DNA of 64,000 bases. Origin: a virus. Taxonomy: Duplodnaviria > Heunggongvirae > Uroviricota > Caudoviricetes. Position numbers and translations under genes: made by a program. The notes under the pieces are model-generated. The model was not told the DNA's origin. It did not search any database and saw only the letters and a list, made by a program, of their open reading frames with translations. The stretch lies in IMG/VR virus record IMGVR_UViG_3300037454_000941, positions 1 through 64,000 of that record; one strand, 5' to 3'. Shown here in pieces: positions 44,148 to 44,396 of the stretch. The stretch's first letter is position 1; the number at the start of each line of letters is the position of its first letter.

Positions 44148-44175
44148 ACTGTATTTCGCTTTTTATGAGATTTAT

Positions 44176-44372
44176 ATAGTGGGTGGCGAGAAAACTCACT
44201 CATCTTTAGTTGGTGGGTGAGGGCCGCCATAAAGAAATTACAATGAAATAATTTTAGGGTAGGCTCACGCAAATGAGGAGCCTCCTGTGGATGACCGTCC
44301 TAGTGACCTAAAAAGCAGTTGCCCCGTTAACAAGCAGGAAATCCACCGGTCTTTAGCTGGTGGGTAGTTCAT
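44176..44372 (+). mobile_element. 197-bp protein-less IS200/IS605 derivative (PATE-like) encoding a stand-alone omegaRNA
   Basis: TTTAT target; left end GGCGAGAAAACTCAC.CATCTTTAG; scaffold CTGTGGATGACCGTC....GACCTAAAAAGCAGT; right end CCACCGGTCTTTAGC.GGTGGGTAGTTCAT; all near-identical to 40502-41969. Confidence 0.9.
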
Positions 44373-44388
44373 ATTTGAGTGAATCGGT

Positions 44389-44396
44389 TATAAACT
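44389..44396 (+). promoter_or_regulatory. Late box TATAAACT for the 2187-aa gene
   Basis: Motif recurrence. Confidence 0.65.

Follow-up and report, generated by a model that had tools for sequence, protein, structure and literature searches.

The 197-bp element that lies between two divergent genes of this phage, and that contains no open reading frame, is probably an eroded, gene-less relic of a full-length tnpB-bearing IS200/IS605 element of the type represented by L034, and the truncated omegaRNA that it still carries has probably ceased to guide a TnpB nuclease. This reading, which is built on comparison of the element with its relatives, differs from that of the first-pass annotation, where it had been described as a stand-alone omegaRNA cassette that supplies a second guide in trans to the TnpB encoded nearby.

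The window, i.e. the whole stretch of DNA that was analysed, comprises the first 64 kb of a linear virus record of 223,861 bp, which is estimated to be 59% complete and in which UvsX-like and baseplate proteins are encoded. Near-identical DNA is present in 20 of the 23 listed runs (13 studies), the labels of which refer mostly to bovine, goat or sheep gut. Eight of these 23 runs were examined at the site of the mini-element, namely X1 (the likely source), five non-source DNA runs and two RNA runs (X9 and X13), the latter being represented by contigs from one study. At least six tnpB genes were found in the record, and a Y1 transposase TnpA (PF01797) gave no match in it, at its completeness of 59%. 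Rfam yielded 0 matches in 40000-62000, no IMG/VR relative of the flanking 596-aa gene was confirmed, and the TnpB relatives detected in genome contigs are distant (34-48% identity). The accessible portion of the Jug-phage paper contains nothing on TnpB, IS200 or rumen (PMC12880540).

The TTTAT target, the left-end hairpin, the length of 197 bp and the lack of an ORF that had been described for this element all hold at the positions given in Table 1, where no ORF of 80 aa or longer was found within the mini-element. The left-end stem-loop has a fold z-score of -3.72, and 0 of 200 shuffled sequences were equally stable. Subterminal hairpins are present at both ends, the insertion lies 3' of a fixed TAM without target duplication and leaves a scarless empty site in relatives, and the element, which has no protein gene, has its ends in common with a full-length tnpB element. 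In structural terms, the mini-element is a PATE-type non-autonomous IS200/IS605 derivative. Among the family members, each of the 18 true left junctions ends in TTTAT, one of the 19 rows (L025) having been dropped as a spurious regex match.

Table 1. Coordinates of the mini-element, its parts and flanks, and the two related elements in the window.
Feature	Position	Strand	Basis or remark
TAM / insertion motif TTTAT	44171..44175	+	belongs to host-phage sequence, not to the element
Mini-element (IS200/IS605, no ORF), 197 bp	44176..44372	+	empty alleles; collinear-block match to L034:664-2316 (182/197 identical)
Intact basal stem and subterminal hairpin of left end	44183..44230	+	fold; 36/40 and 19/24 identical to L034 left end
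AT-rich block from parent, candidate promoter	44242..44255	+	30/34 identical to L034:730-763
Junction of deletion 1, 6-nt repeat TGAGGA	44274..44279	+	alignment to L034
Retained omegaRNA core	44274..44345	+	72/72 identical to L034:2188-2259
Internal strand, predicted partner of 44334-44339	44283..44288	+	pair probabilities
Junction of deletion 2, imperfect 10-nt repeat	44338..44347	+	alignment to L034
Right-end hairpin and terminal TTCAT	44341..44372 (hairpin 44341-44365)	+	33/35 identical to neighbour's right end
Right flank, would-be guide, phage intergenic sequence	44373..44392	+	ends in late-box-like motif of 2187-aa gene
Late-box-like TATAAAT upstream of 596-aa gene	44170..44176	-	motif match; overlaps TAM, survives insertion
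Late-box-like TATAAAC upstream of 2187-aa gene	44389..44395	+	motif match
Neighbour, full-length tnpB-only element, 1468 bp	40502..41969	+	sister lineage, not parent
Second eroded copy of L034 type, left part only	55075..55310	-	86% over 238 nt to L034

The mini-element is a real, precise and lineage-restricted insertion, because contigs of related phages cross the site without it. These contigs skip exactly 197 bases at this position in X2, X3, X4 and X5, and 198 in X8, such that the element is absent in all five non-source DNA runs crossing the site, which come from five studies; the empty allele that had been expected in related phages was thereby recovered in 5/5 of these runs. X1 carries the filled allele, while the site is not bridged in the RNA runs X9 and X13. 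A second copy of the mini-element junction was absent from all 7 non-source runs examined, and no full-length allele at the element's own site was seen among the runs examined. The X8 allele lacks a single base where the would-be seed starts. According to the joint tables, three shared letters are possible at the empty joint as compared to four in the window, which hints that X2-X5 may differ from the mini-element at guide position 2. No viral or genome contig matched the right-flank pattern, and the matches in five related phage records were confined to IS ends, so that the empty allele is not readable from them base by base.

As judged from its alignments, the mini-element descends from the L034 element type and not from the neighbour, the parent that had been assumed. 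L034:664-2316 is a 1653-bp element, found among the scaffold-core pattern matches in metagenome contigs, in which a left end, the AT-rich block, a ribosome binding site (RBS), a 59-aa ORF, a TATAAAC box, tnpB and the omegaRNA/right end follow each other in this order. The identity of 182/197 is distributed over three collinear blocks (85/98, 72/72 and 25/27), and the passage from L034 to the mini-element corresponds to the deletion of 1454 of 1653 bp, plus two single-base gaps. Deletion 1 spans 1424 bp between two TGAGGA copies, one in the parent's RBS and the other inside the omegaRNA, and removed the small ORF, the TATAAAC box, tnpB and the 5' scaffold; its junction corresponds to alignment column 60, which directly follows columns 54-59, the 5' strand of helix 3. 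Deletion 2 spans 30 bp between imperfect 10-nt repeats, with which a hairpin arm (helix 7, columns 132-146) is gone. The near-identity to the 40502-41969 element that had been noted holds for short blocks (30/33 at the left end, 36/43 in the scaffold core and 33/35 at the right end), but not for bases 44228-44274, which, like the AT-rich block, have no counterpart in the neighbour and derive from the L034 type. The possibility that this interior consists of captured phage promoter DNA was ruled out, L034 showing that it is IS sequence. Both L034 and the neighbour are elements that we take to belong to the IS1341 group.

The neighbouring tnpB (40693-41964) encodes the RuvC motifs D183/E267/D349, and its product matches the Pfam families OrfB_IS605, HTH_OrfB_IS605 and Cas12f1-like_TNB; the neighbour element as such is absent in X2 and X4. 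The TnpB of L034 is 71% identical to that of the neighbour and 31% or less to the other TnpBs of the record, the 40693 TnpB being the closest in the record to the parent's TnpB. Parent-type full elements also occur in runs X9 and X5. The 59-aa ORF of L034 (776-955, plus strand), which is preceded by an RBS and lies between the left end and tnpB, gave no Pfam match at E 0.1, and its only homologue among the loci and record compared is in the remnant at 55 kb of the window. In the parent, the AT-rich block sits ahead of the RBS of this ORF.

The remnant at 55 kb is an independently eroded copy of the same parent type. It has lost the left-end hairpin, it contains no tnpB, omegaRNA or right end, and the homologue of the 59-aa ORF that it carries is 78% identical. 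Its site is empty in X5 and X8, and a right end is joined at position 55075 in X13; because X13 still has this right end there, the copy has evidently eroded in place. Since the sister copy eroded in this manner, erosion in place may also be assumed for the mini-element. According to the mechanism proposed here, a TnpA provided by the host or by the unsequenced part of the phage would have placed a full-length L034-type element after TTTAT, between the divergent genes, and microhomology-mediated deletions at short repeats would have shrunk it where it stood, as at 55075-55310. The intact ends of the mini-element may still permit its excision or movement by TnpA acting in trans.

The consequences of these deletions for the omegaRNA were assessed on a structure alignment of 22 distinct family omegaRNA ends, from which L041:465-650 (badly aligned) and L033 (no family right end) were omitted. 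In the proposed structure 98.2% of cells are paired, where shuffles reach 96.3% and slid controls 26-51%, relatedness among the sequences inflating these figures, and helices 3, 5 and 6 (outer helix, pseudoknot and small hairpin) display no two-sided covariation among the 22 sequences. The outer helix (columns 54-59 with 120-124) is paired in 100% of cells in the 22 family members, and it is also kept in the distant L033, L066 and L067 (38-50% TnpB identity), the upstream sequences of which differ. The mini-element retains columns 60-131 and 163-189, columns 1-59 and about 132-162 being deleted, and it is therefore without the 5' strand of the outer helix and without the whole hairpin arm. The scaffold is thus not complete, its 5' part and a 30-nt internal arm being absent. 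From the 3' strand of the outer helix to the element end there are 39 nt in the mini-element, as compared to 63-69 in 23/23 distinct relatives. What has been retained is a core with the inner stem, the predicted 5' strand of the pseudoknot, the small hairpin and the 3' strand of the outer helix; both candidate pseudoknot strands and the right-end hairpin are present, and the candidate pseudoknot columns are invariant, so that their register is not fixed. A covariance model assigns 60.2 bits to the mini-element, as opposed to 186.1 to the parent and 231.7 to the neighbour, both of which were in its training set. By the measure of a complete conserved scaffold, the mini-element does not qualify as a stand-alone omegaRNA.

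There is nevertheless a predicted pairing within the retained core that is peculiar to the mini-element, as positions 44283-44288 and 44334-44339 pair with a probability of 0.5-0.9 in the mini-element against at most 0.01 in the parent. The internal strand might thus replace the lost 5' strand of the outer helix, and the predicted replacement helix consists of the same letters as the outer helix of L066 and L067. RNAfold misses the native helices even in the intact neighbour and parent RNAs, because of which it cannot decide on this replacement helix. The flank is able to pair with the 3' strand of the pseudoknot (unpaired probability 0.00-0.28), although this signal is weak. By their order along the RNA, the lost parts would correspond to the triple-helix stem and stems 2/3a/3b of ISDra2. 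It has been reported for ISDra2 that TnpB is in contact with stems 2/3a as well as with the triple-helix stem, and, within the accessible part of that work, removal was shown to be possible only for the 5' leader and for stem 3b (PMC10097598). Triplex and pseudoknot truncations have been used as inactivating controls (bioRxiv 10.1101/2025.02.11.637750), and truncations of the stem-2 tip are described there as tolerated; stem-2 truncations can keep or raise ISDra2 activity (bioRxiv 10.1101/2025.02.11.637750; PMC10097598). Processed omegaRNAs of 79-466 nt have been reported (PMC10278001).

Apart from parts of its scaffold, the mini-element has also lost a sequence box that precedes tnpB in the family. 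A TATAA(A/G)C motif is located 108-117 nt before the tnpB start in 13/13 distinct family 5' regions and is absent from the mini-element; together with the loss of conserved helices, this speaks against the functional second guide that had been proposed. Examples of this box occur at 40580-40590 of the window and at L034:929-935, and its motif is the same as that of the late-box-like sites of the phage. Genes, as crudely called, are preceded by TATAAA[TC] more often in sense (25/196) than in antisense orientation (8), and, alongside this enrichment, it is on the T4 consensus that we assume these boxes to be late promoters. Every match to the family came from a viral or metagenome contig, GTDB genomes giving none, and the overall pattern suggests that this IS lineage is adapted to phages and takes its timing from their late transcription. 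As regards the AT-rich, promoter-like block within the mini-element, the block itself is present as described, whereas its promoter character finds no support in a sigma-70 scan of 44100-44500, which returned no promoter.

Among the RNA data, the cover of 44274-44336 in X9 belongs to a full-length parent-type contig and thus does not represent expression of the mini-element, the junction of which was not found in the RNA-run contigs of X9 and X13, where absence of cover is uninformative. Contigs of X9 and X13 over the 2187-aa gene stop at 44424-44426, some 30 bases past the TATAAAC box; as a sign that a transcript starts here, this is weak at best. A hairpin at 40660-40690, just upstream of the tnpB start, is conserved in the family, with loop and stem letters that covary, and it possibly serves in translational control.

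In IS605 elements, the guide is the element's own flank and is directed at the empty donor joint (PMC8612924). It is correct that the would-be guide at 44373-44392 reaches into the late-box-like motif of the 2187-aa gene, and that the TAM overlaps the opposite late-box-like motif. Read as its reverse complement, TTTAT forms part of the late box; of 340 TTTAT sites, 57 fall in TATAAAY and 126 lie between genes, against a share of 15% for intergenic DNA. Because the family always inserts after TTTAT, the overlap with the late box needs no special explanation, and the notion of a late-promoter region selected as target is not supported, the guide being simply the element's own flank. No TAM-adjacent self-target with a seed of at least 5 was found in the whole record.

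The proposal that dispersed mini-cassettes form a distributed guide array was followed up in the whole record, where the covariance model returned six matches, corresponding to the neighbour, the mini-element, three other tnpB-linked ends and one reverse-strand hairpin. Within the 224 kb of the record, which is 59% complete, the search revealed no further ORF-less cassette of the mini-element's family. The scaffold-core pattern had 23 matches in metagenome contigs, 6 in viral contigs and none in genome contigs, and 29/29 of these matches (20 distinct) are at the 3' end of a tnpB coding sequence, with 0 being ORF-less. Interior patterns had no match in viral, genome or metagenome contigs, with the restriction that these were exact patterns, one of which missed L034 by one base. 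An array would call for multiple cassettes that share a scaffold, differ in their guides and serve one effector, and a single ORF-less match was found in 224 kb; likewise, mobility as a mini-element would show as several copies at different sites, and there is one copy only. In seven other phage records, the covariance model found 10 matches in five records, nine of them tnpB-linked and one ORF-less (L070), while G006 and G007 had no match to it.

The ORF-less element just mentioned (L070:1521-1715, in G001) is an IS605 mini-element from another phage; it measures about 200 bp and has a left-end hairpin and an AT-rich block. Its omegaRNA is apparently complete and belongs to the L068/L069 tnpB family, and from its sequence L070 is to be preferred over the mini-element at 44176-44372 as a candidate for a working stand-alone guide. 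Two hairpin-only minis of about 50 bp, which have no scaffold, occur in the record at 200750-200800 (minus strand) and 205375-205425 (plus strand), where the left end of a tnpB family with TGAC as TAM (its copies being those at 60234 and 193172) is fused directly to the right-end terminus. Two related tnpB genes, at 30595-31947 of the window (minus strand) and from 141869 to about 143100 of the record (plus strand), have catalytic motifs and similar 3' extensions; no IS ends matching the patterns used accompany them, and they are possibly domesticated. The L019, L039 and L045 elements have a common left flank, and the right flanks of L019 and L039 differ, which suggests recombination between copies or an adjacent deletion. 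L033 contains a tnpB with 38% identity to that of the neighbour and the same scaffold core, with no family right-end hairpin downstream, and loose ends with upstream sequence like that of L033 were observed in X2, X5 and X9.

Other explanations of the mini-element can be weighed against these data. It is possible, though unlikely, that it is a working stand-alone guide of the PATE type. In that case the AT-rich block would transcribe about 113 nt of scaffold plus flank, and the outer helix would be restored by the internal strand; empty alleles in co-infecting relatives would then be cut by the 40693 TnpB, or by a TnpB of the parent type encoded in the missing part of the genome, and the mini-element would home into them. 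The ends, the pseudoknot strands and the inner core have indeed been kept and the replacement helix is predicted at 0.5-0.9, the TAM is the same as that of the neighbour, whose TnpB has intact catalytic motifs, and empty alleles are common; furthermore, trans use of PATE omegaRNAs has been proposed (Meers et al.) and PMC13565253 lists the homing of transposons into co-infecting phages. On the other hand, a whole arm is missing, unlike in 23/23 relatives and unlike in the complete ORF-less L070, the upstream box is lost, no sigma-70 site was found, and the scaffold's own TnpB is 71% identical to the resident one. In addition, there is a weak signal that the flank may pair with the 3' pseudoknot strand, the base at the seed start is missing in X8, and the mini-element has not spread, 0/5 relatives carrying it. 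A more specific version, in which a self-repaired arm-less omegaRNA of about 100-113 nt would be expressed from the left-end block, borrow the 71%-identical sister TnpB and home into empty late-promoter sites of co-infecting phages, appears distinctly improbable.

It is very improbable that the RNA acts as a decoy, being competent for binding and either defective for cleavage or deregulated, and thus tying up TnpB or loosening RuvC control. Such a role would be compatible with the retained WED-side core of the pseudoknot and with the proposal that stem 2 of ISDra2 is a RuvC gate, its truncation being reported to deregulate collateral ssDNA cleavage (bioRxiv 10.1101/2025.02.11.637750), but the element is known from a single phage, there is no sign of selection, and the scaffold is simply 72/72 identical to that of the parent type. 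Hardly any credence can be given to a distributed guide array, with one TnpB loaded from dispersed mini-cassettes against the late promoters of rival phages. A closely related TnpB is encoded at a distance of 2.2 kb, two late-box-like motifs flank the site, empty alleles exist, and the record is 59% complete, so that other cassettes could escape notice; yet the covariance-model search disclosed no further cassette, the element is absent from all five relatives and thus not conserved, the late-box overlap follows from the TTTAT preference, and at least five other tnpB genes are present in the record. Decay of an L034-type element, the explanation that we consider probable, would provide a well-resolved case of tnpB transposon decay in large gut phages, with the parent, the breakpoints, the empty alleles and a sister relic identified, and it advises caution in that omegaRNA blocks in an ORF-less element do not by themselves mean a working guide. 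Should the arm-less RNA work after all, it would be a natural TnpB scaffold smaller than the published trims, to the extent that the accessible literature describes these, and it would imply cross-loading between TnpB lineages, which would be of interest for compact editors.

When compared to tnpB-only IS200/IS605 elements such as L034 and 40502-41969, the mini-element agrees in its TAM, both ends and the scaffold core, and differs by the loss of 1454/1653 bp of the L034 type, its direct parent. Gene-less IS605 mini-elements bearing an omegaRNA have already been published (Meers 2023), and in the available text of that work ORF-less PATE-like IS200/IS605 elements are stated to 'often encode omegaRNAs' and to need TnpB in trans (Meers et al., bioRxiv 10.1101/2023.03.14.532601). 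With the PATEs of Geobacillus stearothermophilus, as far as they are described there, the mini-element shares ends with subterminal hairpins, a TAM at the left junction, the lack of a protein gene, omegaRNA sequence at the right end and dependence on TnpA and TnpB in trans, and its TTTAT TAM is the same as that of ISGst2; in contrast to these PATEs, it resides in a large gut phage, is single-copy and has a scaffold from which conserved helices have been lost. Stand-alone omegaRNAs that are mobilised and work in trans have been reported for OMEGA systems (PMC10691335, citing Altae-Tran 2021), and these resemble the mini-element in being a mobilised locus without effector or transposase, with an effector locus in the same genome, whereas the scaffold of the mini-element is doubly truncated and stems from a sister lineage of the resident TnpB. 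Finally, in the TnpB/reRNA system of ISDra2, the guide is likewise the right flank of about 16-20 nt and the target is the TAM plus flank at the empty site (PMC8612924), and, as in the mini-element, the 3' GUUCA terminus is predicted to form a pseudoknot (PMC8612924, PMC10097598); unlike ISDra2, the mini-element is without TnpB and, judged by order along the RNA, without counterparts of the 5' strand of the triple helix and of stems 2/3a/3b.
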